A stretch of 64,000 nt of DNA, from IMG/VR virus record IMGVR_UViG_3300009826_000020, positions 19,019-83,018 of that record. One strand, 5' to 3'. Of the stretch, positions 15,993 through 60,167 are shown piece by piece; position 1 is the first letter of the stretch; every line of letters starts with the position of its first letter. This DNA is from a virus (Duplodnaviria; Caudoviricetes). The notes below the pieces were generated by a model that saw only the letters and a list, made by a program, of their open reading frames with translations, was not told the origin of the DNA and searched no databases. The translations under genes were made by a program, and so were the position numbers.

Positions 15993-16967
15993 ATGACCAT
16001 GCTCGATACCTATATCCCCTTCGATCAGGGTCCCGGTGCTACGGCGACTGCCCCTCGCTGGCGGCAGATGGCCCGGAACTTCTGTGGTTCAGGGGTGATC
16101 CCCGGCTATCTCAACCAGATGACTCCTACATTGGCCGGTACCAACCTCACCATCGCTTCAGGTGGGGTCATGTGTGATGGGATGTACGGGGAAAATGCTG
16201 GCCCGAAGACCTTTGCTGTTTCTGCTGCTGGGATTGCTGTTGCACGCATGGATCCCACGGCGAGGTCGATCTCCTTTGCCTGGCTTGCTAATGCCACCAC
16301 CTATACGCAGAATCTCACGGGTATCTTCGAGGTCCCTATCGCTATGGTGGTGAACAGCGCCCTGGTCGATTTTCGAGAGTGGGCAACCGGTGGGGGTGGA
16401 GTGGGTGGCAGTCATTCAGAAGGGATGATCGGAGAAATACGGGGGTTCGCTTACTCGACTCCTCTCCCTGGTTGGATCGTCTCTGATGGGCGTTACCTTG
16501 ACCGTGCCCAGTACCCGGAACTTTTCGCTAAAATCGGCGTGGTATACGGCTCGACCTCAGCTACTAATTTCCGAATCCCTGAACTCACCGCACGGGTTCC
16601 CTTTGGTGCGAGCGCCAATTATGCCATGGGGACATGGGGTGGGTCTGCGACCGTAACGCTTACTACGGCTCAGATGCCCACCCATAACCATGGCAATACC
16701 GGTAATATTAGTGCGAACCACGTACACCGGAATACAGTACCGACGAGTGGGACAAACGGGGCGACCATCATCAGTTGGTCTGCATCCACAATCCATATCG
16801 CTTACTCGCCAAGTGGTGAGCCGGTCACGATTGACTCATCAGGAACCCAGACCTCTCAGATAGAGAGTGCCAACCACGTTCACGCTACGGCCAATGCCGG
16901 AAGCAGTAATTCCCACGAAAACATGCCGCCCTACATGGTCATTACCTGGATGATCAAGGTGCGGTAA
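15993..16967 (+). CDS. tail fibre protein with tail-collar domain
   Basis: GEIRGFA..PLPGWIVSDGRYLDRAQYPELFAKIG..YG....FRIPEL..RVPFG; HxH repeats; HENMPPY. Confidence 0.88.
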   Translation: MTMLDTYIPFDQGPGATATAPRWRQMARNFCGSGVIPGYLNQMTPTLAGTNLTIASGGVMCDGMYGENAGPKTFAVSAAGIAVARMDPTARSISFAWLANATTYTQNLTGIFEVPIAMVVNSALVDFREWATGGGGVGGSHSEGMIGEIRGFAYSTPLPGWIVSDGRYLDRAQYPELFAKIGVVYGSTSATNFRIPELTARVPFGASANYAMGTWGGSATVTLTTAQMPTHNHGNTGNISANHVHRNTVPTSGTNGATIISWSASTIHIAYSPSGEPVTIDSSGTQTSQIESANHVHATANAGSSNSHENMPPYMVITWMIKVR

Positions 16968-17398
16968 TGACCTTCGTCCAGCCCGCCAATTTTCGCCAGC
17001 TACCCCTCCAGCGGGAGATGGGGCAGCCTTTTCACATCGACGCTGCCGGGTCTGTCGCACATGAATTTGATCCGGCCCGGTGGGCACGTAGTCATATCCT
17101 GGCAATCCTGCTGACGAATCCTGGTGAGCGGGTGATGCGGCCCACCTACGGGGCAGGCCTCCAGCGGCAGTTGTTCGAGAACGATGACTCGGTCATCGAG
17201 ACGCAGTTGAACACGGCTATTCGTCAGCAACTGGCCACCTATGAGCCGAACGTCCAGATCAGCGAGTGCAAATTTGTCTTCACTGCTGATTACTCTGGAG
17301 TCATGGAATTGCAGATCGCCTTCTGGGTGGGGTCGAACCCGTCCCTGCGGACGGTGGCCATCACCATCGATGGCACGGCTATTGAGGTCAGGGTATGA
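16967..17398 (+). CDS. baseplate wedge subunit, gp25/GPW-like
   Basis: ILLTNPGERVMRPTYGAGL..QLFE...YEPNV. Confidence 0.9.
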   Translation: MTFVQPANFRQLPLQREMGQPFHIDAAGSVAHEFDPARWARSHILAILLTNPGERVMRPTYGAGLQRQLFENDDSVIETQLNTAIRQQLATYEPNVQISECKFVFTADYSGVMELQIAFWVGSNPSLRTVAITIDGTAIEVRV

Positions 17399-19266
17399 GT
17401 ACCTCGCCAGTTTCCCTCGGGACGGTCTCGGATATTATCCCGTCCTCGATCATCGTCCCCCCTGTCGATTACACCAGCCGTGATTATGCCTCGCTGGTGA
17501 ACGACATGCTCAACCTGATCCCGAGCTATTTGCCGGAGTGGACCGACCGGTCTCCAGGGGATTTTGGCATCGTGATGCTGGAATTGTTTGCCTACGTGGG
17601 CGACATCCTGAATTTCTACTCAGACCGTATCGCCAATGAGGCGTATATCGGTACAGCCCAGCAGCGGCAGTCGGTGCTGAATATCGCCAACATGCTGGAC
17701 TACACGCCTCATGGCAATGTGGCGGCGAGCGTTGTGCTCAGTTTCACGATCTCCTCGCCCTCGGGTCCTGTCCTTATTCCACAAGGGTCCCAGGTCTCCA
17801 CCATGCTCACGGGTATCAAGGCCACGATCTTCGAGACGGTGGAAGATCTCTGGGTTTATGGGGACGGTATCTCCACCACAAAAGTCATTACCAGTAATGG
17901 TCTGCCGAATCAGACCATTCTGATGGACGATCCTTCACTGCCTTACCCCTCTTACAATTTTACCGGTGGTTCCGAGCATCAATCGGTTTCGGTTGGCGGT
18001 GAGAACTGGCCGATCTCGGCTGGTAATGAATTCCATGGGATCGGGACGGACAAGCTCTACACTGTGATCAACGGTAATACAATCCAGTTCGGAAATGGGA
18101 TCAACGCCGCCATCCCCCCTGCTGGTCAGTCGATAATCGTCACCTTTATACCTGCAGTCCCGGGCACCTACGTGGGTCAGGTCAATGCTCTCCAGGGGGA
18201 GAGCCAGATCGGTGAGGGTATCGGGATCTCTGATGGTACGCCCAACCAGCAATATACCCTCTTCAATACCCCGGTGGTAGACGGCTCGATCCAGGTCTTT
18301 ATCAACGAGGGTGCGACTCCCACCGAGTGGATCTATCACCAGCGGATGATCGATGCCTTCTCCTCAGAGGGCGCATATACCTATGACGTGGACGCCAACG
18401 GTGTCGTCACCATTCGATTCGGGGATGGGATCTCAGGACGCATTCCACCCCAGGGTGTGCTGATTTCTGCCAACTATATGGTCGGTGGTGGGTCTATTGG
18501 CAATGTCGCCGCCCATTCCATCACCCAGATGATGTCCGGCATTACCGGTGTGGTTGCTGTCGACAACCCGGATGCTGCCACAGGTGGAGCCGACCAGGAG
18601 ACCATCGACCACATCCGCATCCACGCTCCCCTGTCGATGTCTGCCATCAACAGGGCCGTGACCCTGGACGACTACGCCGCTCTCACGCTCAACGTCCCGC
18701 AGATCGCCAAGGCCGCAGCCATGTCGACTGCCTACAACCAGGTGAACATTTTCATTCATCCAGCGGGTGATTTTCTTGCCACTGGCCCTGAGGACACCAC
18801 TGGAATAGCTACCCTGACGAGGCGTGTCAATGCTCTCCTGCCCTCGCTGACGAATTCCGGCTACACGGGCTACCTTGACGACAAGAAAATGGTGAGTACG
18901 TCCGTTGTCATTCTGCCTCCGCAGTACGATAATAAAGGCGTGCGCCTGACCGGCTATGTTCCCTGTAATGTCACGGCTACTGTCCAGGTCTTGCCCCAGT
19001 ATCATCAGTCGTCTGTCCGGTCACTGGCAGAAGCGGCCCTTCGTAATCTCTTTCTCTTCTCGGTGGTGGATTTTGGATCTCGAATCACACTATCGAGCGT
19101 CTATCATGCCCTCATGAATGTCGAGGGTGTTGACTACGTCAATGTCAACCTCATGGCCCGCAATGAGGCGGATCAGTCAGCGGCTCCTGCTGACATCGAG
19201 TGTGAGGCGTACGAGATCCCCAGGGCCTACCAGATCAACGTCAACGCCAACGGGGGGGTGTTGTAA
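17395..19266 (+). CDS. baseplate J / gp6-like wedge protein
   Basis: DYTSRDY, WTD..PGDFG.VMLELFAY.GD.L.FY.DR.ANE, RFGDG..GRIP, GGADQET, RAVTLDDY. Confidence 0.92.
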   Translation: MSTSPVSLGTVSDIIPSSIIVPPVDYTSRDYASLVNDMLNLIPSYLPEWTDRSPGDFGIVMLELFAYVGDILNFYSDRIANEAYIGTAQQRQSVLNIANMLDYTPHGNVAASVVLSFTISSPSGPVLIPQGSQVSTMLTGIKATIFETVEDLWVYGDGISTTKVITSNGLPNQTILMDDPSLPYPSYNFTGGSEHQSVSVGGENWPISAGNEFHGIGTDKLYTVINGNTIQFGNGINAAIPPAGQSIIVTFIPAVPGTYVGQVNALQGESQIGEGIGISDGTPNQQYTLFNTPVVDGSIQVFINEGATPTEWIYHQRMIDAFSSEGAYTYDVDANGVVTIRFGDGISGRIPPQGVLISANYMVGGGSIGNVAAHSITQMMSGITGVVAVDNPDAATGGADQETIDHIRIHAPLSMSAINRAVTLDDYAALTLNVPQIAKAAAMSTAYNQVNIFIHPAGDFLATGPEDTTGIATLTRRVNALLPSLTNSGYTGYLDDKKMVSTSVVILPPQYDNKGVRLTGYVPCNVTATVQVLPQYHQSSVRSLAEAALRNLFLFSVVDFGSRITLSSVYHALMNVEGVDYVNVNLMARNEADQSAAPADIECEAYEIPRAYQINVNANGGVL

Positions 19267-20040
19267 ATCCCCGCTTTTCCATCCTCGATCAAGGTTTTCC
19301 AGACGTTCCAGAATTACACTGATATCATCTGGGCGATCAGTATCAACGAATGTCATGATGAGATCGTCGCCCTTGAGTCAATCCTGGGCGTCAATCCTTT
19401 CATCGGCACACCCTATACGACCTTCAGTGGTGCCATTCAGGATCTATACGCCAACAAGGCTCCCGCCAACCACACCCACATTCACTCCAACCTGTTGGAC
19501 GACAACATAGGGAATGACCATCCTCAGTACATCATGGCGAGCGGGTACCCAGGCTTCAGTGCGCCCGTGGTGGGCGTGGCGGGTGGTAATGCAGCCAACC
19601 TGGTGACCCTGGCCCAGGTGCAGGGCTTCGGCTATGTCAACGAGGCCACGGTGCGCTCCATTGCCACCAGCATGATCAACAGTGCCGAGGGTGGCCTGAT
19701 GGTTGGGGCCTGGGGCACTCAGCCCTTGATAGGGGTCGCCCCCAACCCCAGTTGGACGATCCAGGGCGGGGTCTACTCAGCCTGTACAGACGCCAGTGGC
19801 CGGATAACGATCCCCTTCAACCCCCATTATTCGCATTGTGTGCAGTCCGTCTCTGTCACGAAAATGCCTGCAACGCCCCAGGCAGGTGGCCATTATCCAT
19901 GCCCACCATATGACTGGATCGAGTCCCAGGTCACCCTTCTTGGCGCATCAGGTACGGGAGCCGTTGTCCAATTCTCCCATGACTACAGTTGGCAACCCGG
20001 TATGTGGGTGACAATCATGTACATGGCTATGGGGAATTAG
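19267..20040 (+). CDS. tail/baseplate protein; apparent start is ATC (track starts at TTG 19495)
   Basis: frame open from 19267; aligns by eye with 20041-21318 (EIVALESILG vs EIVSLETVIG, HTHIH vs HNHVH, DHPQY vs DHPIY). Confidence 0.8.
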   Translation: MPAFPSSIKVFQTFQNYTDIIWAISINECHDEIVALESILGVNPFIGTPYTTFSGAIQDLYANKAPANHTHIHSNLLDDNIGNDHPQYIMASGYPGFSAPVVGVAGGNAANLVTLAQVQGFGYVNEATVRSIATSMINSAEGGLMVGAWGTQPLIGVAPNPSWTIQGGVYSACTDASGRITIPFNPHYSHCVQSVSVTKMPATPQAGGHYPCPPYDWIESQVTLLGASGTGAVVQFSHDYSWQPGMWVTIMYMAMGN

Positions 20041-21318
20041 ATGTCCGACGTACCGGATATGCCGGTAACTGACCGAGGTGAGATCCCACCGGTAGTTGCT
20101 AGTCGGCGTTATCCGCAGGCCATACGTAATTTTGTCACCTACCTTGATCAGCCCGGTGGACCGGATCGGTTCCTGGTCACCGCCAATACCCAAGGCGGCG
20201 GGACCACCACCACCGACGTCACCCTTGACGCCGCCGCCGTCACTCGTGATGTGCAGACTGAGATAGTCAGCCTGGAGACGGTTATCGGTATACGGCCTTG
20301 GACTGTGCCCGGGACGGTCGATATCGGTGGTTCAATCAGGTGGCTGTACAACAATAAGGCTGCTGGTCGAGTCGATACTCGGAACGAAATACCTCCGGCT
20401 CCCCCGCCCTCGCACAACCATGTCCACGCCCAGTCGACAGGACTCAATGCCGATGATCACCCGATCTACATGCGGGTCGATGGCACGAGGCATTTCTCGG
20501 CTGCTGTGCTGGGCAAGAACGGCACCGCCGGTAATCATCTGTTGACACTCGGGCAGGTCCAGCCGGGTGGGCCGCTTGCTGGGCTGACCTCAAGTCAGGT
20601 GCAGGCCATCATTCAGGGTCTGATCAATGCCTCCTCGAACAACCCCTGCCGTGGGCCGGATTCCCGCCGATGGAAGATGGCTGGTGGGGTAGCACAGGGC
20701 TATACGGATGCCAACGGTAACCTGGCCTTCAGTATTGCGGCGGCTAAATTCAACGGGATCCTCAGTTTTCTCTTTATGAAGATGCCCCATGCGGGTACCA
20801 CGGCTGTCAACCTGAGCTTCACGCTTTCCGGTGATGTGCTCTTTGCCTTCGACAGTTCGGCCCTCTCGTCCGGTGCTGTGGCCGAACTGAACAGCATTGC
20901 CCTCACGCTGAGGAGTTCGCCCTCTGGGAGTGTGCATGTTGTCGGTCACACCGACTCGATAGGCACGTATGCCTACAACCTCGGCCTCTCGCAGCGACGG
21001 GCTGCCAGTGTGATGTCGTACTTTTCTGCCCATGTTGGCAATTCCCAGCTTCGGTATTCGAGTGAAGGGCGCAGTTATAGCGATCCTGTGGCCCCCAACA
21101 CTCTGCCCAACGGCGCAGATAATCCCGCCGGTCGAGCGCTGAACCGCCGTGTCGAGATCAGCTACGTGCCTGACGTTCGCTACGCTTATCAATACATGGA
21201 GGATCAGCTTCTGCTCACCTCCCTGACCAATAGCAGTGCAGTCGTCACCTTCATTGAGGATGTCAGGGTGGACAAGCAGGCTCTGGTCAGCCTCTGTTGG
21301 CTGGCACTGGGGATATAG
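20041..21318 (+). CDS. tail/baseplate protein with inserted OmpA-like peptidoglycan-binding domain
   Basis: paralogue of the previous gene; SGDVLFAFDS...VVGHTDSIG..YNLGLSQRRA...GRALNRRVEI at 20818-21165. Confidence 0.9.
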   Translation: MSDVPDMPVTDRGEIPPVVASRRYPQAIRNFVTYLDQPGGPDRFLVTANTQGGGTTTTDVTLDAAAVTRDVQTEIVSLETVIGIRPWTVPGTVDIGGSIRWLYNNKAAGRVDTRNEIPPAPPPSHNHVHAQSTGLNADDHPIYMRVDGTRHFSAAVLGKNGTAGNHLLTLGQVQPGGPLAGLTSSQVQAIIQGLINASSNNPCRGPDSRRWKMAGGVAQGYTDANGNLAFSIAAAKFNGILSFLFMKMPHAGTTAVNLSFTLSGDVLFAFDSSALSSGAVAELNSIALTLRSSPSGSVHVVGHTDSIGTYAYNLGLSQRRAASVMSYFSAHVGNSQLRYSSEGRSYSDPVAPNTLPNGADNPAGRALNRRVEISYVPDVRYAYQYMEDQLLLTSLTNSSAVVTFIEDVRVDKQALVSLCWLALGI

Positions 21319-21331
21319 GGAGGAGGACACG

Positions 21332-23460
21332 ATGGGCGTATATGGCCTGGATTTTACGGAGTAGGTCGCTTCGGGCGGGATCCCGCCCTTGAGCGGCCTG
21401 ACTTCTCTGTTCAGCCCTTCGCCACCATGCCTCTCAGCTATTCCAGCCTGTACCTGTCCTGGGTGAAGCCCGTATCCCCTGACTGCGTGACTCTGCGCCT
21501 GGTGCGTACCGGCCTGAACCTCTCCCAGAATCCCGGCGCTGATCCCGGCACTACCACGAATGCCGACGCAGGCTCGGATGGTTATGTGCTCTTCACCGAC
21601 ACCGTGGATCGGCTACCGAACTTTATTGATGTGGGTCTTGGTGGTGGGTTTTTCTATTACACGATGTGGGGTTGGTCCAACCAGGACCAGATCTGGATCC
21701 GCTGCTCCGATGTGATCGGCCTGGTGCCCCTCAACTGGAACTATGGCTGGCGGCTGTACATGCTCCTCCCCGAGGCCTACCGGGACCGTGACTGGGTCCT
21801 GGTGGATCACTACAACCCTCTGGCCCTGCCCCGGCAGAATGACTTCAGGCCCTACGAGGTGGAGAGTGGTGATTCGTGGCAGACACTCGCCTCCCACTAC
21901 GGCACCACGCCAGAGAGCCTGGCGTACATCAACGGTGAGGTGATCTCGACTCCTCTGACATTGGGTCAATCGATCCTGGTGCCCTGGCCGAATTCTCCTA
22001 ACCCGGATCCGCCCCTCAGGCGATTCCTGGGTCTGATCGGATTCCAGTTCGACTTCATCCGCACCGAGCTTGAATCGCTCATGAGCGTCAATGACGCCAT
22101 GCACTGCTCGGGTGCGCTCCTGCCTCTGATGGCTCAGCAGTATGCCCTGGTGCATGAGCCGGAGATCGGGATGCAGCAGGAGCGCACCTTGGTACAGAAC
22201 GCCGTGCATCTTTTCAAGCTGAAGGGCACTCCTCGGGGTATTACTGATTGGTGTTCGATCATGACGAGCTACCCCTTCTCCAGGTTGGTTCACCATGGCT
22301 ATAACTGTCTGCTATGCCTCGATGATTCGGCCTTTACAGACGGGATAGGTACCTGGCAGTCCTGGCCCCCGAGGGGGGCGAGCTTCGAGGAGGAAAAGGA
22401 GCGCACCTGGTTCGACCCGGACTGGTTCTGTAATCAGACCTTCGGGTATTACTTCGGCTCTGGTGGTGTGAATGTCGAGGTCACTGGATTCAAGTTGACC
22501 TGGATCCCTGATCTGCCTATGGCTGGGACCTCCAGCCCTCTGGGTGACATGTACCCTGATGGATTCCCTGTGTGGTCACCGGAATATCTCAATAGCGGTA
22601 TGAGCCTGTCTGCCGATGGCCCGGGTACGCTGGACACCTGCACTGCAGGCATCCCTATCACCGACTTCGTGTCGGAGACATACGGCCCTGGAAATGCCAC
22701 CTTTCGTGTAGGTGTCTGGTCGCCCACAGCCCGTCAGGTCAACCTCTCAATCTGGGCCGACGAAGGGTCTGACGAGCCGATCCTCATTGCGGAGCAGAAC
22801 TTCACCTCGGTGGCCGGTCACTGGTCGCTGTTCACTCTGACCACGCCCATCGATGTATATCCTGACCTGGACGGCCCTGCCCAGTACTACTGGCTCTATC
22901 CCCGTATTCGGATAATAAATGCCGCCGCTCATGAGGTACATTACGTCACGCTGGCTGCCCTCTGGCCCACAACCCCAAACCTGGTGGGTCTCAACACGCC
23001 TGAGTTTGACTATGCCCGTGACCTCAAGGTGAATCTTGAGCCGGTGGCTTCCAATCTTCTCGGTAATACCCTCACGAGTTTCGACCGTCTTAACCCTGAT
23101 GATGGCAGGCTACGGATCGGATTCGATGGCCTCTGTGCTGTTGCTGACCCTATTACGAAGGCTGGCCCGCAGACAGGGCAAATGGTCTACCGCCGCCAGA
23201 CTGTCGATGATGCCCCGAGTTCCCTGACCGTCAACGGAAATGCCGCTCTGCAGTTCAACGTGACTGCGCCTGGTGGCACGGTGTGGTTTGGCAGGATACC
23301 CTCCTGGTCGCCCGAACCCCCGACTCCTGATGGATGGTGGGATCCCAAGACCAGTGACTGGTACCCGGGTGCTGGACCTGGAGCCTCTGCTGCTAGGCCA
23401 TGGATGAGTGACACACTGGGCTGGTTCGCCATGCCCTTCCCGCCGGGAGTCAGCCTGTGA
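21332..23460 (+). CDS. tail protein I/gp7-like baseplate protein with LysM; N-terminus needs a -1 shift near 21352 (main ORF 21427-23460)
   Basis: GGAGGAGG RBS + MGVYGLDF|YGVGRFG; LysM at 21853-21984; LRRFLGLIGFQFD...LFKLKGT. Confidence 0.75.
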
Positions 23461-23711: not shown

Positions 23712-24331
23712 ACGTCGAAGAAGAATAGGTGAACCAGCCGAGGCCCATTCACATAGCTTGTCGCTGAGTGAATGAGGCTGGCGTCCCAGAGGACGAGCCG
23801 GTTATAGATCCCGGCGACCTGGTCGACTAGCTGCCAACTGTCAGGGTGCTCCAGGTTGTACGGGTCATATACTGACGCCTCAGCGTCCTTGATTGCCTCA
23901 GGCCCGTATTTCTCCAGCCGCCTGACCTCATATGGATGTGTGGGCTTACGACGAACGCCGTCAGCAATGTGTTGCCAGAAACTCGTCCCATCTTCTGGCC
24001 CGCCGTCAGGGTTCAGGTACACCGCCCCGGCATAATCCTGACCATCGTGGTGCCAGACGAGGTTGTCCTCTTGTGAGGTCTGCTGGAAGACACCGTTCAT
24101 CCCGTGTTCCAGCCAGGCCGTGATGGGTGTGCCGAGCAGCCGAGAGAATTCCTCACGTTGCCAGGGGAAGAGGAATCGCTCCTTTGAGCGCAAGCCCTTG
24201 AAGTAGTCGAGGTCTGAACCGTACTCCTGGGCGAGGGCGAATTCTCGTATGGCGTCTGGATCCTTGTAGAATTCGTCCACCACCAGGAGGCTTGGTGGTT
24301 GGGAATTGTGCTGTACCTCTTCTAGATCCAC
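23708..24331 (-). CDS. 2OG-Fe(II) oxygenase (DUF6445-like)
   Basis: VVDEFYKDPD.IREFAL, H-x-D (WHHD), YAGAVYL, GTSFW, YNRLVLWD...HSA, RL. Confidence 0.85.
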   Translation of the reverse strand: MDLEEVQHNSQPPSLLVVDEFYKDPDAIREFALAQEYGSDLDYFKGLRSKERFLFPWQREEFSRLLGTPITAWLEHGMNGVFQQTSQEDNLVWHHDGQDYAGAVYLNPDGGPEDGTSFWQHIADGVRRKPTHPYEVRRLEKYGPEAIKDAEASVYDPYNLEHPDSWQLVDQVAGIYNRLVLWDASLIHSATSYVNGPRLVHLFFFDV

Positions 24332-27156
24332 TTGCTACCGTCCCATACCTTGGCTGGTACCCATCCACCAGCCTGTTCCATGGTGGCCTCAGAGATGAAC
24401 CTGAAGTCTCTGATGATGAAATCGACCTCGCCGCCTATCGGGCCGGTCCCCCCTGGTCCTTGCCCGCCCGTCCCTGAGATCCACAGGTTCATGTCAACGC
24501 TGGGACCGTCATCACCGACATTGGCAATCGCCTGCCCGTCAGGGAATCCGTTCCAGGTGGCCCCAGAATAGCTGCGGGGCAACTGCGGGTTTGCCTTCCA
24601 GGTGGACGGGCTGCCGGTCGGAGAGGTCCAGGTAACCGAGCGTGGTGGTCCTGAGCGCCAATCGAACCAGTGCTTGGTGGGCAGTGGCGTGTCGGCCTCG
24701 GTGTACCGGAGATCGGCCCCATTGATGCTGGGTCCTGACCAGAAGTAGTCCCGCCACTCTGTATAGGCGGGATCGGGCACGATGCTCGGCCAGGAAGACC
24801 AGTGGCCGTTGGTGGGCTGTGGGTAGCTCCACCTGGCGAACTCAATGTCGATCTCTCGGTTGCAATAATCCCAGGAGTCACTGGAGCGAGAATCCCAGGT
24901 GAACAGTCCCACCACCACATTGAGGGGCACTGGATCAACCGGCGTGTCCAGTGTCCACTCGTACCTGCCGTAGCCGAAGTTGTTTTTGCTGATAATCTCG
25001 GCGCACTCCCAGCCATTACGGGAGGCGTTGTAGGCGATTTTCAGATGGAGCCGGTCCTGGCCGTCAATAAACACCATGTTGTTAGACCAGAAGTTGTTGC
25101 CGGGTCCGACCCTTTCCCCGCCAGCATTGCGCTTGACGTTCCACTCAATGCCCTTCCACATGAGGTTGGATGACCCACCATTACCGAAGAGGGCGTAATT
25201 GCGATCTGCTGCTGGTGTGCCATATTCACGTATACCGCTGATGTCTCCACCCCATCGCCGCAGATTTCCTGATGCCCACTTCGTGCCATCCCACGCCTTG
25301 ACCGGACCAGGAGGCAAAGCTTCTACGAATGGCCCACCACGGAGGTTGTCCCAGCGTGACGTGTTCTCGGACAGTTCAATGCCAATAGCACCCGTTGTCC
25401 AAGAGGTAGCTGGTGAACCGATATTGGCAGTGCTGATGACCTCCGTCCAATGGCCACCGCTCGGACGACGGCCCACGGCGAGGACATTGCCCCGCTTGGC
25501 AAACCAGAGCGAATCACCGCTAGCAATTCCCGGTGCGATTTCACCGGCCAGGTTGGTTCCCACACCGGCAACCTCACGGCTCAGATACCATTCTGTCCCA
25601 TACTGAGCGAGACGGAGGCCGGTCTGTTCCGAACCAGGGTTCTGCAACATTATCCAGAAGGAGAACTGGGCACCGCCAGGACTGGTCACGCAGTCGATCA
25701 ATACATCGCAGTCAGGCCCTTGCAATTCCTTGAAGGTGGGGCGCACGAAGCCCTGGTTCCAACCGCTGGCAGTTTGTCCAAGCGTGTTGCTGATAACCCG
25801 CAGACTGCCGGGATAGCCAGAGTTGATCCAGCCGCTGACCCAAATGGGCGCACCGTCCCCGGCGTCGAGGTTACCGTCAGTCCGGTTGAAATTATCGATC
25901 AGGTCTTCATGATCCGGTTCAGGTCCGGTAATAGCAAGAGGCCCGCCCCGAAGATCGTCCCACCGCTGGGTGGCGTCGGTTACCTGAAGACCGAAATACC
26001 CGTCAGCCGGGAGGTACAGATTCGATGTGGCGGTGAAGAGTTGTGTCCACTGCCCACTGGCTGGCTTGGCATAAGCAGTGAACACGTTCCCACGCTTGGA
26101 GAACCACAACTCCTCATTGGCAGTAATGCGGTGTGCGATGCCACCGATATAGGTCCACTGCGTGTAGTCGGTCCCCTCGATGAGGTACAGGAGGAGTTCG
26201 CCTTCATAAATCTGCCAGCCCCAGGTTTTCATGTTGCTGGTTTCGACGTTGTTCGCCAGCATGTACCAGGTGACTACATCGTCTGCTGCCTGATCCGGCG
26301 GTACAACGCATTTGACGATCAGGTCGCAGTTCTCTCCTTGGATTTTCTTCTTGGAAGTTGTGCTCTCCCAGTTCTGGCCGGTGGGGCTGCCGAGGGTATT
26401 GCCAATGACCTGGAAATCAGACGCCCAACTACCCCAAGCACTGTGACCGGTCCAGATGTCCGCTCCTGCACCGTCTTGTACTGGCCCGTTGGCCCGATTG
26501 AAGTCATCGATTAGCTCATCGTATTCCGGTGGGTCTACTGGGGGCGGCTGCTCCTCGGTGATCTCGATGGTGTGCGCCCGATAGGGCGAAGAGGAGAATC
26601 CGGTCACCGTGTCTGCTGCGGGGTTTGCTGCCAGTCCTGCCCTGGTGTGGACCGCCATGAGTGCCGAGGCCCCAGCAGGCTGGGCAATGCTGTTCGTCCA
26701 CCCTGAGGGAGGAGAGCCAGCGGTGTTGGCGTGTGCCGCCCCTCTGGTCACCACCCTGACGCCCATTGATGTCCCACCTGTGGTGGAGAGAGTCAGCGCT
26801 GGATAAATGGTGTTGGTCTGGTTGTTGGCATTTCCGCTTGAGGATCCACCGGTAGGAACAGCTAGGGTTCCGCCGTGACTGGAGCGCAGGACAAGAACGC
26901 AGATGTGGCTGGCGTTTGCTGAGGTGACGGTCCCATGATTCGAGGCCGTCGCTTTTGTCCACGCAGTGACCAAGGCGAGGGTGTTTGCTGCGCCGGTCTG
27001 GAGGCTCGTAAAGGTCAGCCCGGAAATAGTGGGGAGGCTGTTTGCCGTATTGTTCGCCCGCCGAGCCGTGACCAGGATCAGATCGCCAGCCTGATGGGCT
27101 GGCATAGCGACATTGGTGGCTGCTGCCGAAGCACTACTGGCAATCGTGATGGTCAT
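24322..27156 (-). CDS. tail fibre / receptor-binding protein with two ConA-like repeats and C-terminal GH16-like domain
   Basis: LIDDFNRANG and LIDNFNRTDG repeats; FGYGRYEW...GLFTW...EIDIEF (24841-24855). Confidence 0.85.
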   Translation of the reverse strand: MTITIASSASAAATNVAMPAHQAGDLILVTARRANNTANSLPTISGLTFTSLQTGAANTLALVTAWTKATASNHGTVTSANASHICVLVLRSSHGGTLAVPTGGSSSGNANNQTNTIYPALTLSTTGGTSMGVRVVTRGAAHANTAGSPPSGWTNSIAQPAGASALMAVHTRAGLAANPAADTVTGFSSSPYRAHTIEITEEQPPPVDPPEYDELIDDFNRANGPVQDGAGADIWTGHSAWGSWASDFQVIGNTLGSPTGQNWESTTSKKKIQGENCDLIVKCVVPPDQAADDVVTWYMLANNVETSNMKTWGWQIYEGELLLYLIEGTDYTQWTYIGGIAHRITANEELWFSKRGNVFTAYAKPASGQWTQLFTATSNLYLPADGYFGLQVTDATQRWDDLRGGPLAITGPEPDHEDLIDNFNRTDGNLDAGDGAPIWVSGWINSGYPGSLRVISNTLGQTASGWNQGFVRPTFKELQGPDCDVLIDCVTSPGGAQFSFWIMLQNPGSEQTGLRLAQYGTEWYLSREVAGVGTNLAGEIAPGIASGDSLWFAKRGNVLAVGRRPSGGHWTEVISTANIGSPATSWTTGAIGIELSENTSRWDNLRGGPFVEALPPGPVKAWDGTKWASGNLRRWGGDISGIREYGTPAADRNYALFGNGGSSNLMWKGIEWNVKRNAGGERVGPGNNFWSNNMVFIDGQDRLHLKIAYNASRNGWECAEIISKNNFGYGRYEWTLDTPVDPVPLNVVVGLFTWDSRSSDSWDYCNREIDIEFARWSYPQPTNGHWSSWPSIVPDPAYTEWRDYFWSGPSINGADLRYTEADTPLPTKHWFDWRSGPPRSVTWTSPTGSPSTWKANPQLPRSYSGATWNGFPDGQAIANVGDDGPSVDMNLWISGTGGQGPGGTGPIGGEVDFIIRDFRFISEATMEQAGGWVPAKVWDGSKWI

Positions 27157-28139: not shown

Positions 28140-28293
28140 AGTCTCTCTCCATTTTCCGCAGAATATCCGATTCGTATTGGAGTCGCTGCAACCGTTTCAA
28201 CTCTCGGCCTAGGCGTCGGAATGACAACCAGAGATCCACGTTAAGCCCTAGCAGAAATCCGAGCAGGACCAGTAGGACGTGGACGGCGGTCAT
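28132..28293 (-). CDS. 53-aa single-TM membrane protein
   Basis: MTAVHVLLVLLGFLLGLNVDLW + basic tail; ATGA overlap. Confidence 0.65.
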   Translation of the reverse strand: MTAVHVLLVLLGFLLGLNVDLWLSFRRLGRELKRLQRLQYESDILRKMERDFE

Positions 28294-30008
28294 GGGACAG
28301 TGACCCCAGTGGCAATGGCGATGCGGGGACGGTCGCCCTCCAGCCAGTCCTCTTGGGTTGTAAGCAGGTTGTAGGATGCGCCCCAGGTGCCGTTGAATTG
28401 AATAGCGGGAGTGACCCATCGACCATGATCACGGGTACCATTCGGATTCATACCGAACATGCCGTTCAGCCCGAATAAGAACTGACGGGTCGGTACAGCA
28501 CCGAGTAGGTTGTAGTCCCTGATGCCGTCCCAGTTAAAGTTATCGGCAACGACCCGCATCGTCCCGCCCACCGCTCCGATGACGGGGACCAGCACTTCGC
28601 CAACCTCGACTGGGCAGTTGATCCCCATCTGGTAAAGACCGGCGGGAGTGCCCGATGGAACGGTGGAAGCGGCGGTCGCCCGGTGGCTGATGATTCCCGT
28701 CTGACGGTCGAGGACGTAGATAGCGAGGTGGCCAGTGACCCCTGAGTCGACCGCCTCCTCCAACCCGATTGTCATACCTGTGATCGTGCAGGTTCTACCG
28801 GCGGTGAGAAAGGCGAACCGAAACCATCCAGAGGGGAGAGTGACTGCAACGTGAGGACCGGCACCGATGTTCTCAGGGACATACCACCGACCGTCGACCA
28901 ACGGTGTTGCCCCCGGCAAACCAGCAACGCTAGCGCCACCTGGGCTGGGTTGTAATTGCTCCTCGGTAATCCAGAGGGCACCGGCATTTTGTGTGTCCGG
29001 TTGTTGGGCCTGCTCATGAACTTCGACAAGCCCTGGGGATCCCTGTGGCCCCTGACTCCCTGCGCCTCCTCCAGCGAGATCCTTCCAGCCCTCTCCGTTC
29101 CACATCGATAGGGCGTAGCCGACATCCCCACCACTACTGCTCTGATCGTTGATTGCTTCGTAGTCGCCCAGTATTTCCTGTGGTGTCAGCGCCCGATTGA
29201 ATATCGCCACTTCATCCAGAACCCCAGCAAAGGAGGTACCTCCACGCCCCAAGGTGAATTTGGTGGTGAGCGAGGATATTGCTGTTGCCAATTGTGGTTG
29301 AGTGGAGGTGGTGACCGGCGTGGCGGCAACCCCGTCGCAGTAGGCGATTGCTGAAGTGCCATCACAGGTGACGACACCATGATGGGTCACGTTGTCTGCA
29401 AAGCCGGGTGGACGGGTGCCAGGGGATTGACGGGTTGTGCCGCCGGTTCCAGATGGGCCTGGACGAAATTGCAAGTCGCCGCTGGTATTGGTTAGGCATT
29501 GCCAGGGAAGAGGAACTAGATCTTCAGGGGTACCGAAGCACCACATGATCCTGTTCTCCGTACCCGTGCGGAAGAGTACGCTCACCGACCACTGATTGCC
29601 GAGGCCGGTGATGTCTCCCTCGGCTCTGGAGGTGTTTCCCCAGGCGGCGGCGGTGTCTTCATCCCATGGCAACAATCCGATAGAGGAGGAGATATTACCG
29701 GTACCGAGGAGGGTGGAATTGGCTGGGCTGGAGTCGGTGAAATTCGGTGGATCGTCCATCCGCCAGTAGCGGAATAGTCCACTCCTGCTAGCAATGCGAG
29801 AGTGGTAGGCAGAGGAGGCTGATCGGCGTGGCTCTACCCATAGCTCTCCGCTGCGTGGGTTTGGTGGTGCTAGCTCAGCGAATACTGGCTGTGCTCCTGG
29901 TGGGCCTGTCTGTCCACGAATTGTCGCCTGCCATGGCTGGACCGGAGCATCAACACCATCATCACCATCACCGGAAATGGGGTCGCCGGGATCACCGCTT
30001 ATGCTCAT
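28290..30008 (-). CDS. tail fibre protein with LamG/ConA-like domain
   Basis: YWRMDD...FAGVLDEVAIFNRALTPQEI. Confidence 0.82.
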   Translation of the reverse strand: MSISGDPGDPISGDGDDGVDAPVQPWQATIRGQTGPPGAQPVFAELAPPNPRSGELWVEPRRSASSAYHSRIASRSGLFRYWRMDDPPNFTDSSPANSTLLGTGNISSSIGLLPWDEDTAAAWGNTSRAEGDITGLGNQWSVSVLFRTGTENRIMWCFGTPEDLVPLPWQCLTNTSGDLQFRPGPSGTGGTTRQSPGTRPPGFADNVTHHGVVTCDGTSAIAYCDGVAATPVTTSTQPQLATAISSLTTKFTLGRGGTSFAGVLDEVAIFNRALTPQEILGDYEAINDQSSSGGDVGYALSMWNGEGWKDLAGGGAGSQGPQGSPGLVEVHEQAQQPDTQNAGALWITEEQLQPSPGGASVAGLPGATPLVDGRWYVPENIGAGPHVAVTLPSGWFRFAFLTAGRTCTITGMTIGLEEAVDSGVTGHLAIYVLDRQTGIISHRATAASTVPSGTPAGLYQMGINCPVEVGEVLVPVIGAVGGTMRVVADNFNWDGIRDYNLLGAVPTRQFLFGLNGMFGMNPNGTRDHGRWVTPAIQFNGTWGASYNLLTTQEDWLEGDRPRIAIATGVTVP

Positions 30009-32341: not shown

Positions 32342-32824
32342 TTACGCCCAGACCCACAAATTGCCGTCGATGTCGAGCCACGCATCTCCTGGTTGCCCGC
32401 CTGAAGGCGGCGGTCCCTGGCCCGGGAGAGTGCCGACAATGCGAATACCGGCCCCAGAATCGCCCTGTGCGCCGGGACCACCCTGGTGCCCTTGGTGTCC
32501 TTGCTGACCCAGTTCCCCAGCGTTGCCAGCCCCACCCTGGTTCCCCTGATTTCCCTGATGCCCTTGATTTCCTTGCGCTCCGGTTCCGCCCGCAGTTCCG
32601 GCGGTCCCAGGACCGCCCTGGTTACCCTGTGTTCCGACATTTCCCTGGTGGCCCTGGTGTCCCTGCTGGCCGATGCCTCCATCAACCCCAGCGGTTCCTG
32701 GCCCGCCCTGATGGCCTTGAGATCCTTGATTCCCTGTGGCCCCATCGGCTCCTGTATTACCGGGATCCCCTTGTAGGCCCTGAGGCCCTCGGATTACACC
32801 GACATTCGACCAATCACCGGACAT
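32342..32824 (-). CDS. collagen-like protein (GxQ repeats)
   Basis: ~35 G-X-Y triplets flanked by WSNVGVIRGP and GDAWLDIDGNLWVW. Confidence 0.88.
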   Translation of the reverse strand: MSGDWSNVGVIRGPQGLQGDPGNTGADGATGNQGSQGHQGGPGTAGVDGGIGQQGHQGHQGNVGTQGNQGGPGTAGTAGGTGAQGNQGHQGNQGNQGGAGNAGELGQQGHQGHQGGPGAQGDSGAGIRIVGTLPGQGPPPSGGQPGDAWLDIDGNLWVWA

Positions 32825-32841: not shown

Positions 32842-33396
32842 TTAGCTATAGACCCACAGTTCGCCGGTTTCACCAATAATCCAGCCATCCCCCGGCTGTG
32901 GATCCTCGATGGAGGACAGATCCATCACGAATGGCACGGTGCCCTTGATCGTCGTTCTCGGTCCCGGCTCTCCCTGATATCCCTGCATACCAAAAGGCCC
33001 TTGTGGTCCCTCCGGCCCGGATATCTGTTCAAGCTTTGTCCAGCCGACAGGATCGCCCTTGATCAGTCTTGAGTCATACCACCAGACTTCATAGCTGCCG
33101 TTGACCGGCCCGACGAGCCAGACCTTGCCCATCTGCGTCACGTCAGGGGTACATGGCAGGAAACGGAGGTCAGGTATTACTGCCTGGATATTGAATCCAC
33201 CAGGAGGCCCGGTGTGTCCCTGTAATCCCTGAGGCCCTTGTAGCCCCTGTGGTCCCGGCTGGATGCCCGGTGGGCCTTGAGGCCCTTGCCGTCCGACCGG
33301 CCCAGCTAAGCCAGGTACCAGTATCTCCACGATCTCCGAGGTCGGAGAGACGGTGATGGGAAGCTCGGGATAAAGATCGACGTCAGTGTTGGACAT
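32842..33396 (-). CDS. collagen-like protein
   Basis: GPQG repeats, ends GDGWIIGETGELWVYS. Confidence 0.85.
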   Translation of the reverse strand: MSNTDVDLYPELPITVSPTSEIVEILVPGLAGPVGRQGPQGPPGIQPGPQGLQGPQGLQGHTGPPGGFNIQAVIPDLRFLPCTPDVTQMGKVWLVGPVNGSYEVWWYDSRLIKGDPVGWTKLEQISGPEGPQGPFGMQGYQGEPGPRTTIKGTVPFVMDLSSIEDPQPGDGWIIGETGELWVYS

Positions 33397-37856: not shown

Positions 37857-39452
37857 ATGCCAGCGCTAACTCACCCGGGGGTATACGTCGATGAGTCGGC
37901 CTTCCCCACGTACATCAGTGCCACTCCCGGCAATGCGGTGGCCTGCTTCGTGGGTGTTGCTCCTCGTGGTCCGATAGGCCCGAAGATCGTAAATTCGTGG
38001 AAGCAGTTCACCACGCTGTACGGTGGCTTCGAGACGCAGTATCCACCGAGCAGTCTGCACCTGGCGGTGTTCGGGTATTTCTCTGCCGGTGGAACCAGTG
38101 CCGTGATTATTCGAGCTATTCGGCTGGATACTCAGGGGCCTTCCACTGCCTCTGCCAGCCTCGATGACCAGAATTCTGAGGGGGCACAGCCTTCCATAGA
38201 GGTCCAGGCGGCGAACCCGGGAACCTGGGGCAACGATGTGTACGTCGACATCCTGCCTGGGCGGGTGCTCGACCCCCTGACATCGGTGCCGATCACCTTC
38301 AGTATTGTGGTGAAATACCAGGGCACGGCACCCATAAATGTTGTGGAGCGGTGGACAGACCTCTCGATGGTCCCGGGGTCCACCCATCTGGGTCAGCACA
38401 ATTACGCCCTCGATCTGGTCAACTCCACCTATAACGGGTCGAATTTCATTCGGTTGGTGGACTTGGCGAACGACCCTGGTGTCCTTGAACCCACGCCAGC
38501 CCCTGCTAATAATCCTGCCCCGACGCCGTCGAATGTTTCGACACAGCTATCAGGTGGCGATGAGGGCCAGCCTATTACCTTCAATGACCAGTACCAGGCA
38601 CTGACACAACTGGATCAGTACCCGAACCAGCCCTTCGTGATCAATATGCCAGGCGTCACCAACGTCACCGACGTTGGCCAGGTGGTGTCCTACGCTGAGC
38701 AGCGTACCGATGGCTTTGTGGTCATCGATCCGCCCGCCGGGATGGCCCCTGATGGAATGGTCGCTTACGCCCAGTCACCCGGGATCCCGGCCAGTGCCCA
38801 GGCTGCGATCTATTACCCTCAGGTGCTCATCGCTGATCCGTACAGCATGAACCCCGGTATCACCAGACTCATGCCACCTGGTGGATTCGTGGTGGGCCAG
38901 TACATTAACACCGACATCACGAGAGGTGTGCAAAAGGCCCCCGCCGGTCTGGGTGCCTCACTGAACGGTGTCCTCGGTCTGGAATACACCCTGACCAACC
39001 AGGACCAGGGTGATTTGAACCTCGCCAATGTCAACTGCCTCGTGGCCATGTCGGGATATGGCGTGGTGATCTGGGGTGCCCGGACGCTCTCGCCCTACCT
39101 GATTACCAGGTATGTATCAGTCGAGCGCACCATCATTTACCTGGCCACTGAGTTGGTGGCCATGTCGAGATTCGCCGTGTTCGAGCCGAATGACTGGGTG
39201 CTCTGGAATCAGGTAACACAGATCCTGGCTCAATTCCTGACCCAGTTCTGGCAGAGCGGTGGCCTGTCAGGTAAAAGCGCTTCGGAGGCGTTCTATATTA
39301 TCTGTGACCAGACCAACAACACACCCTTGACTATCCAGCAGGGCGTCCTCAATATTGAGATTGGTGTTGCCCTGGAATTCCCCGCCGAGTTCGTGGTCAT
39401 CAAGATTGGCCAGTGGGCTGGCGGGCAGAATGTTTCAGTGACCACCACCTAG
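37857..39452 (+). CDS. contractile tail sheath protein
   Basis: PGVYVDE, ANPGTWGN, PPGGFVVG, KAPAG, WGARTL, YVSVER, FEPND, PAEFVVIKI. Confidence 0.96.
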   Translation: MPALTHPGVYVDESAFPTYISATPGNAVACFVGVAPRGPIGPKIVNSWKQFTTLYGGFETQYPPSSLHLAVFGYFSAGGTSAVIIRAIRLDTQGPSTASASLDDQNSEGAQPSIEVQAANPGTWGNDVYVDILPGRVLDPLTSVPITFSIVVKYQGTAPINVVERWTDLSMVPGSTHLGQHNYALDLVNSTYNGSNFIRLVDLANDPGVLEPTPAPANNPAPTPSNVSTQLSGGDEGQPITFNDQYQALTQLDQYPNQPFVINMPGVTNVTDVGQVVSYAEQRTDGFVVIDPPAGMAPDGMVAYAQSPGIPASAQAAIYYPQVLIADPYSMNPGITRLMPPGGFVVGQYINTDITRGVQKAPAGLGASLNGVLGLEYTLTNQDQGDLNLANVNCLVAMSGYGVVIWGARTLSPYLITRYVSVERTIIYLATELVAMSRFAVFEPNDWVLWNQVTQILAQFLTQFWQSGGLSGKSASEAFYIICDQTNNTPLTIQQGVLNIEIGVALEFPAEFVVIKIGQWAGGQNVSVTTT

Positions 39453-39460
39453 GAGAAGCC

Positions 39461-40072
39461 ATGACCTCTCGACCACTCAACTCAGATCCCCTGCGGAATT
39501 TCCGGTTCATTGTCTCCCTCAACCATCCGAACCTGCCCAATCTGGTTCGTATGGGATTCATGGCGGTGTCAGGATTGGCCGTGAACAACGAGGTCATTCC
39601 CTACCGTGAGGGCGGCAACAACACCACCACCCGGAAGATGCCCGGGCAGTCTGACTTCGGCCCGTTGACGATGACCCGTGGCCTGATGGCCGCTCCGGTC
39701 AAGGCAGGTGTCGGGAACGTCTCCGGCATGGAGGTGTACCAATGGTTCTCCCAAATTTTCTCGGTGAATATCGGGGCTGGATTTGGCAGTGCCTCCACTG
39801 ACTTTCGTATCAGTTGCACCATCGATGTGCTGCAGCACCCCATCACCTCGGGTGCCGGAGCCGCCGGTAATGAGCCGTATAGCGTGCCCCCGATCAAGGT
39901 GCGGTTCGTGGTACAGAACTGCTGGCCCATGGGTTATTCGTTCTCCGACCTCGAAGCTGGGGGTAATGCCGTCTTCATCGAGAACCTGACCCTGGCGCAC
40001 GAGGGCTGGGGCATGATCACCGCCGCCTCGCCGGATCCTGGTGTCTACGTGAGTTCCTCGGCCACGTACTGA
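39461..40072 (+). CDS. tail tube protein (T4 gp19-like)
   Basis: DPLRNFRF, GFMAVSGL, YREGG..TTRKMPGQSDFGPLTMTRG, NCWP, IENLTLAHEG. Confidence 0.93.
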   Translation: MTSRPLNSDPLRNFRFIVSLNHPNLPNLVRMGFMAVSGLAVNNEVIPYREGGNNTTTRKMPGQSDFGPLTMTRGLMAAPVKAGVGNVSGMEVYQWFSQIFSVNIGAGFGSASTDFRISCTIDVLQHPITSGAGAAGNEPYSVPPIKVRFVVQNCWPMGYSFSDLEAGGNAVFIENLTLAHEGWGMITAASPDPGVYVSSSATY

Positions 40073-44000: not shown

Positions 44001-44257
44001 TAGCCGAGACCCAACTAGCACTTCTTCACCGAGGTGAGTCGGTGGTACCCGCCGCCGACAACTACGGTACCGCACCTTATAACCGTAATGGTGCCATGAA
44101 CGGTGGTGGGAATGTAACCCATCTGAACTTCAAGACCGGTTCGATTACTCTCCAAGTTCCAGCCAACAGTACACAGACACAAATGGAAAATATCGCCAAG
44201 CAATTTGTGCAGGCAGTGTCCAAGCCTGGTGTCATCGCCGCCGTGAGGAGTAGCTGA
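41096..44257 (+). CDS. tape measure protein with SLT lytic transglycosylase
   Basis: 1053 aa after the chaperone; IIQKESGGNP...GLMQLIPSTF...NIAAGIKYI. Confidence 0.92.
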   Translation: MPDGGGYGLGVLNPSTLKEFATGLGGISSQFTKLVSGVTNFGTAVSKTIQQANTQLDTLDKKFQSLVTRMGQMGAGGPSTGMGGGSGGTGSPSGLGSQWGSALTPAGTSVASGTPSLPKQPTNSIAGTSYPTQAPQAVSTPGVQTTAPNGGGAPLGSAEAAAKAFAPQPSQAAPAAPTQTTAGNGGWGPAPGATPAPTAPSGGNNWPTTPSAPETQTTSPNGGSGSTGGGGSMMQRAATSILPAAAGYAAGAVGEGGGGGAIATSVQGATIGQLLSGQNYTSAAAKQYYVMPKDMMAQSPADYAQGNYYAAQSMGLQPGVGGLTSQNFATVQKGTQQLMTLSPGMSYQSAMAAQNQMNQPQTLNAALRVGINLRPGGKMLTPEQQNEQIFNRMFQGKKPTKDEFDQVMSSGYGQSNLASIGITPGSDEYNQFMNYSRTKIGMQEQGKGMPDVGTKKGAQEAGLNTPYNDQLRVQSKESQLKSQAEPTLAKAADTLNKAANALLGAVQKIGATPGGGGGFFSQIGQHLGLTGGGGGGLLSGFSLHLQGGGEVPDVWQGDLNKTPMGKLPGVSSNFFKNIGRLFGGLNGEADTDKVPTLLSPGERVLSKSEKKSVEKSLAGQSGTSRGYWGPKVAGSQADSSTVAGLLSTKINDLDQTTVAYSLFNKPPDGSLISMMLSQGGQKGGGAQGGKPPDAWVEGQIDASGKTGQTGKASGTRTGQQTGGKTNANQPEESQKKKSGGILGTIGDVLGGVVKGVGGVVGSLLGGGAGLGGAGGGAGGLGGGPGGGLLGTGFAGAPAPSVGTLPWNYKMLTSTPVDMSSLFDKQSASSDDSSSDDSSSSVVGSAPSGNLKGWISQAMKITNVSGDAWTNGLNLIIQKESGGNPGVTNNWDSNAAAGHASTGLMQLIPSTFKANAVPGYDKNINDPVSNIAAGIKYIESRYHDISNVPGVKAVAAGGAYVGYARGTQRIAETQLALLHRGESVVPAADNYGTAPYNRNGAMNGGGNVTHLNFKTGSITLQVPANSTQTQMENIAKQFVQAVSKPGVIAAVRSS

Positions 44258-59720: not shown

Positions 59721-60064
59721 TTGCTCTCCAGTTCGTTCGCCCTGGCGACGGTGCTGCGCCAGTCCTTTTCCACAGGCTGGCCGCTCAGGATCCTGGGTGC
59801 CTTTCCAGGCGTCCATATACCTACGGCGTAGGCTCGCTGCGACCACCGGCACATAATACCCACGCCACGCCGCCACGGGGGCAAAATTTCCCGGGTCAAA
59901 GCGATGGAGATTCGTCGCTGGCGGGGATTGGGCTGGCCCTGCCAGGAGTAGAAGATCAGGAAAGAGGAAGTGTTATCAGGAACCGAGCGGGGGTCGGGGA
60001 GCTTCGGCAGAATCCACTCGTCGTTCTCCTCGGGGTCGACGTAGGCGTCGGGGTGTATCTCCAT
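59717..60064 (-). CDS. hypothetical protein (possibly fused to the upstream Pup-like segment)
   Basis: 115-aa ORF; ATG directly after a C6 run. Confidence 0.65.
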   Translation of the reverse strand: MEIHPDAYVDPEENDEWILPKLPDPRSVPDNTSSFLIFYSWQGQPNPRQRRISIALTREILPPWRRGVGIMCRWSQRAYAVGIWTPGKAPRILSGQPVEKDWRSTVARANELESK

Positions 60065-60167
60065 GGGGGGTGTTCTCTTCTAATACCTTGTCGATTTGAG
60101 CGAGCAGACTGGCGGTCTGCTCACTTACTTTTGGGTCTGGTTTCTGCTCCGACTTCTTTTGGCGCAC
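59976..60167 (-). CDS. Pup-like peptide
   Basis: GGGAG RBS + GTG; EQTASLLAQIDKVLEEN vs Pup EETDDLLDEIDDVLEEN. Confidence 0.6.
   Translation of the reverse strand: MRQKKSEQKPDPKVSEQTASLLAQIDKVLEENTPHGDTPRRLRRPRGERRVDSAEAPRPPLGS

Follow-up and report, generated by a model that had tools for sequence, protein, structure and literature searches.

Tail-fibre genes of the locus

We analysed a stretch of 64,000 nucleotides (hereafter, the window), which spans bases 19019-83018 of the IMG/VR record IMGVR_UViG_3300009826_000020 (83,018 bp, linear; CheckV completeness estimate, 71%), from an uncultivated, soil-type tailed phage with a contractile tail (a myovirus). Our subject is the gene at 20041-21318 (+ strand), a stop-free open reading frame (ORF) of 425 codons, the product of which, designated here as fibre B (P0002, 425 amino acids (aa)), is a predicted tail fibre that carries an OmpA-like domain. 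This gene belongs to a baseplate block made up of the genes for a tail-collar protein (15993-16967); a gp25-like protein (16967-17398); a Baseplate_J-like wedge protein (17395-19266, +; Pfam PF04865, E-value (E) 5e-11; phrog_219 and phrog_6, baseplate wedge); a second tail fibre devoid of the insert, fibre A (P0001, 257 aa; 19267-20040, +); fibre B itself; and a gpI-like baseplate protein (Tail_P2_I), in which Pfam detected a LysM domain (21427-23460, +). The order gp25-like, Baseplate_J, fibre A, fibre B and gpI-like is kept in 22 related loci.

A BLASTP comparison of the two fibres aligned aa 27-201 of fibre A with aa 69-249 of fibre B (E 8e-17), and aa 215-256 of fibre A with aa 383-424 of fibre B (E 2e-4), the gap between these two segments amounting to 133 aa in fibre B versus 13 aa in fibre A. 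From these alignments, and from the comparison of fibre A with its relatives, we regard fibre A and fibre B as true tandem paralogues. A preliminary description of this DNA, made from the letters alone, had matched the two ORFs by eye and had noticed the extra stretch following the 'KMP' motif of fibre B; both observations are borne out by BLASTP.

The start of the fibre A gene is unusual. Its first ATG, GTG or TTG codon occurs only from 19495 onwards, yet conservation among relatives extends over its first 76 codons. At 19264-19269 the gene is in frame with Baseplate_J, from which it is separated by a single TAA codon followed by ATC at 19267, while relatives show an overlapping stop-start (TAATG or TGATG), with ATG where the window has ATC. 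An ATC start codon, a re-initiation of translation or a sequence error near a G7 run could account for this.

An intact OmpA-like domain in fibre B

The family PF00691 (OmpA) was the only one matched by fibre B in a Pfam scan. The match covers aa 267-359 and profile positions 1-94 of 98 (E 7.5e-14; 52.3 bits, for a cut-off of 27.2 bits). An OmpA subfamily hidden Markov model (HMM) that we built for this analysis spans aa 260-375, i.e., nucleotides 20818-21165. Combining the alignments and the PF00691 match, we delineated an insert of 131 aa (aa 250-380; 20788-21180, +), which consists of a linker, the OmpA-like core (aa 260-375) and a second linker. Fibre B was searched by Pfam for a lysozyme, SLT, amidase or peptidase catalytic domain, and none was found; the hydrolases are carried by other tail genes.

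Four motifs of this domain family were located in fibre B: GDVLFAFDS (aa 264-272), GHTD (aa 302-305), SQRRA (aa 317-321) and NRRVEI (aa 368-373). The D of GHTD is Asp305 (codon 20953-20955, +), a predicted diaminopimelate (DAP)-contacting residue, which aligns with the conserved TD of solved OmpA-like domains and is invariant in the donor subfamily described below. The second R of SQRRA is Arg320 (codon 20998-21000, +), located 15 residues past Asp305 and also predicted to contact DAP, from both its position in the motif and the alignment with solved domains. This TD-N14-R spacing is kept in 114 of the 116 domains of our subfamily set, and we take it to be the same as that of the DAP-contacting residues D271 and R286 in the Acinetobacter baumannii domain (PDB 3TD5). 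Furthermore, the phage copy has retained all 31 of the 31 alignment columns that are invariant in 16 cellular homologues.

The AlphaFold2 (AF2) model of fibre B displays high values of the predicted local distance difference test (pLDDT) across aa 205-425. These values lie mostly between 83 and 94 in the OmpA-like domain (aa 258-377), the regions 212-247 and 389-424 of the surrounding knob are also confident, and the junctions of the insert are linkers of lower confidence (pLDDT 64 for the block 251-260 and 68 for the block 381-390). When submitted to Foldseek, the insert matched the solved OmpA C-terminal domains, Pal, YfiB, MotB and TagL, with a probability of 1.0 and target-normalised TM-scores (TMt) of 0.7-0.78 (0.72-0.78 for 5NHX, 4G4W and 4RHA); the above-mentioned 3TD5 structure is among the matches. 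A search of the ESM Atlas returned only OmpA-family clusters.

Thus, fibre B contains an intact OmpA-like domain endowed with the predicted DAP-contacting Asp and Arg residues. The preliminary description had proposed just such a domain, with these two residues, at 20818-21165, coordinates that our subfamily HMM reproduced exactly. It had also suggested an HMM search with PF00691 and a structure prediction as checks: the former gave a match above the curated cut-off, and the latter an OmpA-like fold.

The best solved relative of the insert at the sequence level is 7F4V (E 3.5e-19), followed by PA0833, OprF and OmpA. In 7F4V, residues 751-864 of chain aB form an OmpA-like extension at the C-terminus of the 872-aa PsaB chain of photosystem I, which is another graft of the same domain subtype onto an unrelated protein.

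Absence of the domain from relatives of fibre B

A search of 5.8 billion proteins yielded 32 orthologues of fibre B, which are 273-314 aa long and 36-55% identical to it, and none of these 32 proteins harbours a Pfam domain; fibre B is the sole member of its own protein cluster. An alignment with 16 orthologues showed that their 'KMPFPGxSMLGW' segment runs directly into 'YAYQYMEDQL'. In fibre B, the insert takes the place of the loop 'FPGxSMLGW', about nine residues long, with 'KMP' on one side and 'YAYQYMEDQL' on the other. The joint alignment of orthologues and OmpA-like domains was made with nine domain sequences; with 53 domains, the orthologues were wrongly placed against the insert.

Both fibre genes are kept in tandem in all 22 of the 22 related viral loci, where a tblastn search with the insert returned nothing better than E 2.7. 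These insert-less loci include some of which the RecA protein is 78-80% identical to that of the window (for instance, the contigs of P0020 and P0026, and L005). In the AF2 model of an insert-less orthologue, the knob has the same strands as in fibre B, and the loop that corresponds to the insertion site (aa 239-248) has pLDDT values below 50. Together, these data show that the insert is lineage-specific, and that it sits in frame in a flexible surface loop of the knob. The insertion proposed in the preliminary description is therefore corroborated by the paralogue, the 32 orthologues and the 22 related loci, all of which lack the domain.

The carrier protein

The ORF, a profile search and the AF2 model indicate that fibre B comprises an N-terminal attachment region and a shaft with an HxHxH...DDHP.Y motif, followed by a C-terminal β-sandwich knob that is split by the insert. 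The first half of the knob (aa 205-249; 20653-20787, +) contains the predicted strands 212-221, 227-231 and 240-247, and the second half (aa 381-425; 21181-21315, +), which is 56-69% identical to its counterparts in relatives, contains the strands 389-395, 399-405 and 415-424. Searching a profile of the insert-less orthologues against 1.84 billion representatives retrieved 393 proteins, many of them tail-fibre-like, the full-length members of which are 255-326 aa long. The central 'HxHxH ... DDHPQY' segment, with H125, H127, H129 and H140 invariant in the orthologue alignment, occurs in as many as 18 copies in proteins of 500-2600 aa; judged from this repetition, it behaves as fibre-shaft repeats do.

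The AF2 model of the orthologue ends in a confident six-stranded C-terminal sandwich. Structurally, it comes closest to the R1 pyocin fibre tip (6CXB; Z 7.6, 88 residues) and to the fibre protein gp53 of A. baumannii phage AP22 (4MTM; Z 7.5), over 85-88 residues with a root-mean-square deviation of 3.1, the C-terminal domains of tailspikes and the H-type lectins being also among the best matches; in the BFVD database, the top matches of the knob are annotated tail fibres (E 1.4e-6). The fold call, by itself, is suggestive. Taking these matches together with the position of the gene, we propose that fibre B is a short tail fibre, the distal knob of which is lectin-like. This view retains the earlier assignment of the carrier to the tail genes, and it fits the data better than a plate protein of the baseplate.

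Origin of the OmpA-like domain

The nearest proteins are OmpA-family lipoproteins of about 550 aa, which are 50-58% identical to the insert over the domain. These candidate donor proteins have a lipobox and a central OmpA domain flanked by two similar β-rich domains, so in cells, too, the domain is an internal module. The phage copy corresponds to the central domain only, without the lipobox or the β-rich domains, and is flanked by fibre-knob sequences. The genes of the donor family adjoin tad-type pilus genes (T2SSE, T2SSF and DUF5936) and a HisKA_3/GerE two-component pair, a neighbourhood that is conserved in Solirubrobacterales-like genomes (loci L024, L025 and L026). Among species-representative genomes, the best matches were found in Solirubrobacterales metagenome-assembled genomes (MAGs; 50-53% identity), and others in Streptosporangiaceae, Nonomuraea and Micromonospora.

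In a maximum-likelihood tree of 116 domains (119 alignment columns), the insert is placed inside a clade of 66 rows, supported by a Shimodaira-Hasegawa-like approximate likelihood ratio test (SH-aLRT) value of 97, to which all 35 of the 35 Actinomycetota rows belong and in which Actinomycetota is the only named phylum. Within this clade, the insert is part of a subclade of 32 rows, mostly from Solirubrobacterales (SH-aLRT 87-90). Its exact sister is not reliably placed, given the small number of columns and the long branch of the phage copy. In its GC content (59.8%; 65.6% at third codon positions (GC3)), the insert equals its flanks (58.9%; GC3 64.3%) and is far from the candidate donors, which indicates that the capture is old or was made from an unsampled source. 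The insert thus appears to be of cellular origin and nested in an Actinomycetota OmpA clade, which points to a donor of that lineage. The preliminary description had spoken of a captured host domain: the cellular capture stands, with the donor lineage suggested by the tree, while the word 'host' goes further than the tree does.

A LysM insert in the neighbouring gene and other grafts

The gpI-like baseplate protein, encoded downstream of fibre B, also bears an insert. It combines Tail_P2_I with a LysM domain at aa 143-186 (Pfam E 3.1e-5), included in an insert of 54 aa (aa 132-185; nucleotides 21820-21981); at this position, a loop of only about 20 aa is present in each of the 22 relatives. 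A Pfam scan of six of these relatives detected Tail_P2_I only, and no LysM. Going by these comparisons, this one phage has gained two unrelated domains of peptidoglycan-binding families in neighbouring tail genes.

We then found that two others of the best 150 representatives of the fibre family bear an OmpA domain and that one bears a LysM domain. The protein P0175 (368 aa; L111:738-1844), with an insert-less paralogue directly upstream on its contig, harbours its OmpA domain (PF00691, E 1.5e-11) in another loop than fibre B, immediately ahead of the last knob strand. P0214 (371 aa; L112:6001-7116), the locus of which has a syntenic baseplate module with gp25 and a J-like gene, uses the same loop as fibre B, but its OmpA-like segment is divergent. 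In P0192 (410 aa; L113:655-1887), it is a LysM domain that precedes the last strand. The OmpA domains of fibre B and P0175, which are 45% identical, are sisters in the tree (SH-aLRT 82), both on long branches; they may stem from one capture or from two, and their location in different loops implies at least two insertion events. The grafting of domains of wall-binding families thus recurs in this fibre family, as judged from the domain matches. Besides these grafts, the family includes P0143 (838 aa), in which the N-terminal part of the fibre is fused to a Tail_P2_I protein.

The preliminary description knew of no standard phage tail protein with an OmpA domain. In the literature searched, no phage tail fibre was described as bearing such a domain, and the OmpA-like domains that came up were only the anchors of type VI secretion systems (T6SS) and whole phage OmpA genes, the latter reported in huge phages (bioRxiv 10.64898/2026.10.24.761521). 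This part of the claim is upheld; the architecture, for its part, is not unique, given the two distant family members with an OmpA domain and the one with LysM.

A tblastn search of 50,697 phage records produced two matches only. The better one, in the record 'UNVERIFIED Pseudomonas phage Y1', is a lipoprotein with DUF4398 and OmpA domains encoded beside a P-type ATPase; we rejected it as a cellular-type gene that does not encode a tail protein. The other match is weaker and has no annotation at the site.

Other genes of the phage

The sheath (37857-39452) and tube (39413-40072) genes are inside the window, while the capsid, SPP1-type portal and terminase genes are on the record, outside the window. 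Two tail proteins carry peptidoglycan hydrolase domains. First, a tape-measure-like protein of 1053 aa (41096-44257, +) has an SLT transglycosylase domain at aa 868-971 (PF01464, E 2.3e-14). Second, the protein encoded next (44257-45705, +) begins with an NlpC/P60 domain (PF00877, E 2.2e-15); its C-terminus is weakly tube-like. The replication and recombination genes of the phage encode a primase, an SNF2 helicase, a DNA polymerase and RecA.

Three collagen-repeat proteins, encoded at 47166-50609 (+, 1147 aa), 32342-32824 (-) and 32842-33396 (-), are probably additional fibres. We also observed a Laminin_G_3 protein (28290-30008, -), a protein of 944 aa (24322-27156, -) with a weak PHROG match to 'minor tail protein' and, near the end of the window, a protein (62401-63090, +) with an ADP-ribosyltransferase exoenzyme domain (PF03496, E 5e-9).

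Proposed function and alternatives

From these findings, we propose that the OmpA-like domain probably serves as an adhesin, or anchor, which binds DAP-type peptidoglycan exposed on a Gram-positive actinobacterial host. The mechanism could be as follows. The domain, spliced in frame into the flexible knob loop of the second fibre copy, would be displayed in three copies per tip, assuming that the fibre is a trimer. At the tip, it would grip the diaminopimelate-containing stem peptide of the exposed peptidoglycan of a monoderm actinobacterium, and the LysM domain of the gpI-like protein, at the baseplate periphery, would strengthen the attachment by gripping the glycan strands. With the baseplate thus held on the thick Gram-positive wall during adsorption, the SLT and NlpC/P60 domains of the tail would cut the wall, and the sheath would contract. 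Solirubrobacter is Gram-positive, with a wall that contains meso-diaminopimelate (PMC10722151). An ORF of 63 aa (59976-60167, -) hints faintly at an actinobacterial host, as it gave a sub-threshold match to Pup (E 0.0021; 19.4 bits, for a cut-off of 27; profile positions 31-56 of 69). The RecA search returned phage-like relatives only, and no pointer to the host.

Several observations weigh against this proposal. First, the domains of Competibacteraceae (Gammaproteobacteria) are nearly as close to the insert (51-54% identity) as those of Actinomycetota, and the identity to any cellular domain does not exceed 58%. Second, the GC content of the phage (58%) is well under that of the candidate donors (63-73%). 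Third, the insert-bearing sequence is known from one contig, and the OmpA-like segment of P0214 lacks the Arg ('SQQQA') and scores 25 bits, under the Pfam cut-off; this loss implies that the graft is not always kept in a binding-competent form. Fourth, the fold match of the knob is middling (Z below 8, and scores this low are common). Fifth, the window has no tRNAs and the Pfam scans of the genome detected no endolysin, so that neither offers a clue, in the latter case to the envelope type; the fibre family was also unmatched in 401 sampled Actinomycetota genomes, a result that is not informative.

Four other explanations, each of which we rate well below the anchoring on an actinobacterial wall, have to be considered. 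According to the first one, which we regard as unlikely, the host is a diderm, and the domain acts after the outer membrane has been breached or disturbed, by anchoring the baseplate to the periplasmic peptidoglycan, as occurs in T6SS or flagellar stators. OmpA-like domains are indeed best known from diderm periplasms, the solved matches of the insert are OmpA, Pal, TagL and MotB, and the Competibacteraceae identities mentioned above go in the same direction. However, the domain is carried by the fibre knob, which remains outside the outer membrane, and the tree places the insert in a clade of Actinomycetota only, with the SH-aLRT value of 97 given above; the weak Pup-like match also points to Actinomycetota.

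Alternatively, the domain might be a tolerated passenger, i.e., an accidental in-frame insert in a permissive loop, which plays no role in infection or is decaying. Its occurrence on one contig and the degenerate OmpA segment of P0214 would suit this explanation. Yet the ORF is intact; every one of the subfamily-invariant residues has been kept in spite of the limited identity to any relative; the composition of the insert has fully adjusted to that of the phage, which does not suggest a fresh accident; and wall-binding grafts recur both in the fibre family and in the neighbouring gene. In view of these points, we hold a mere passenger to be improbable.

A third explanation supposes another ligand: the domain could pair with the OmpA-like domain of a surface lipoprotein of the host, of the donor family, or bind another wall polymer. 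OmpA-like domains often dimerise, and the donor lipoprotein, which has a lipobox and is encoded beside the T2SSE and T2SSF tad genes, should be surface-exposed in a monoderm. Nevertheless, the Asp, the Arg and all the subfamily-invariant residues are kept, which is most simply explained by the retention of the ancestral ligand, and the co-acquired LysM domain also indicates peptidoglycan. This makes a different ligand quite improbable.

Lastly, a chimeric contig that joins phage and bacterial DNA would agree with the single contig and the single member sequence, but it is scarcely credible, as the insert is in frame, sits at an exact loop boundary between the two parts of one small domain, has the GC and GC3 of its flanks and not those of the donors, and has equivalents of the same kind on independent contigs. 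As for an action of the OmpA domain in the producer cell, nothing was found to support it.

If the anchoring of the fibre to an actinobacterial wall is correct, the phage would have borrowed an envelope anchor from the lineage of its host in order to hold the same envelope, with peptidoglycan itself as the receptor. The presence of two domains of wall-binding families in adjacent tail genes, and of similar grafts in distant relatives, makes this functional reading testable. Going further, and more tentatively, the knob and the neighbouring baseplate protein might be acceptor sites in this uncultivated group of soil myoviruses, onto which OmpA-like domains (at least twice) and LysM domains (at least twice) would have been grafted in repeated, independent events. 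Bare peptidoglycan would then be a primary, evolvable receptor for phages of deep-branching Gram-positive Actinomycetota. In that case, the grafted domains could act as natural probes for finding such hosts. They may also offer a handle for assigning hosts to uncultivated soil phages, for example through the labelling of cells with a tagged domain.

Comparison with known systems

The insert resembles the OmpA/Pal/MotB domains (PF00691; 3TD5 with its bound DAP pentapeptide, the Klebsiella pneumoniae OmpA C-terminal domain 5NHX, and Pal 4G4V) in its HMM match, its fold and its Asp/Arg pair. It differs from them in that they are C-terminal modules acting in the envelope of their own cell, whereas the phage domain is internal to the knob of a virion fibre and would act from the outside. 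With the Actinomycetota lipoproteins of about 550 aa (Solirubrobacterales MAGs, Nonomuraea and Micromonospora), it shares the C-terminal motif PVAPN..DNPxGRAxNRRV and the internal position of the domain.

The T6SS anchors TagL/TssL (4B62; PMC8253398) offer a functional parallel, since they use an OmpA-like domain to fasten a contractile, phage-tail-like machine to peptidoglycan, and their structures match that of the insert (Foldseek rank 5). However, they are inner-membrane proteins that belong to the envelope complex of the attacker itself, whereas the phage domain is located on a distal virion fibre and would bind the wall of the target. Fibre B does not belong to the TagL/TssL proteins, as both flanks of its domain are the halves of a fibre knob that is common to the insert-less orthologues.

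As for the carrier, the gene of which lies in a baseplate module, the predicted small β-sandwich of its knob resembles the tips of the R-type pyocin fibre (6CXB) and of gp53 of AP22 (4MTM) as well as the H-type lectins, at a middling score and with no detectable sequence similarity. The pyocin and AP22 knobs bind surface sugars themselves, and we know of none with an inserted domain.

Phage receptor-binding proteins evolve by swapping and inserting binding modules. Phages of Gram-positive bacteria insert carbohydrate-binding modules in loops of their baseplate proteins ('evolved' Dit, BppA), and lysins carry LysM and SH3b wall-binding domains. Similarly to these modules, the OmpA-like domain is an adhesion module that would have been added to a tail protein by insertion or fusion; those modules are carbohydrate-binding or lysin-linked, whereas the phage domain is OmpA-like and lodged in a fibre knob. 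The graft described here would extend the known modularity of receptor-binding proteins to a domain that is apparently undescribed on a tail fibre.

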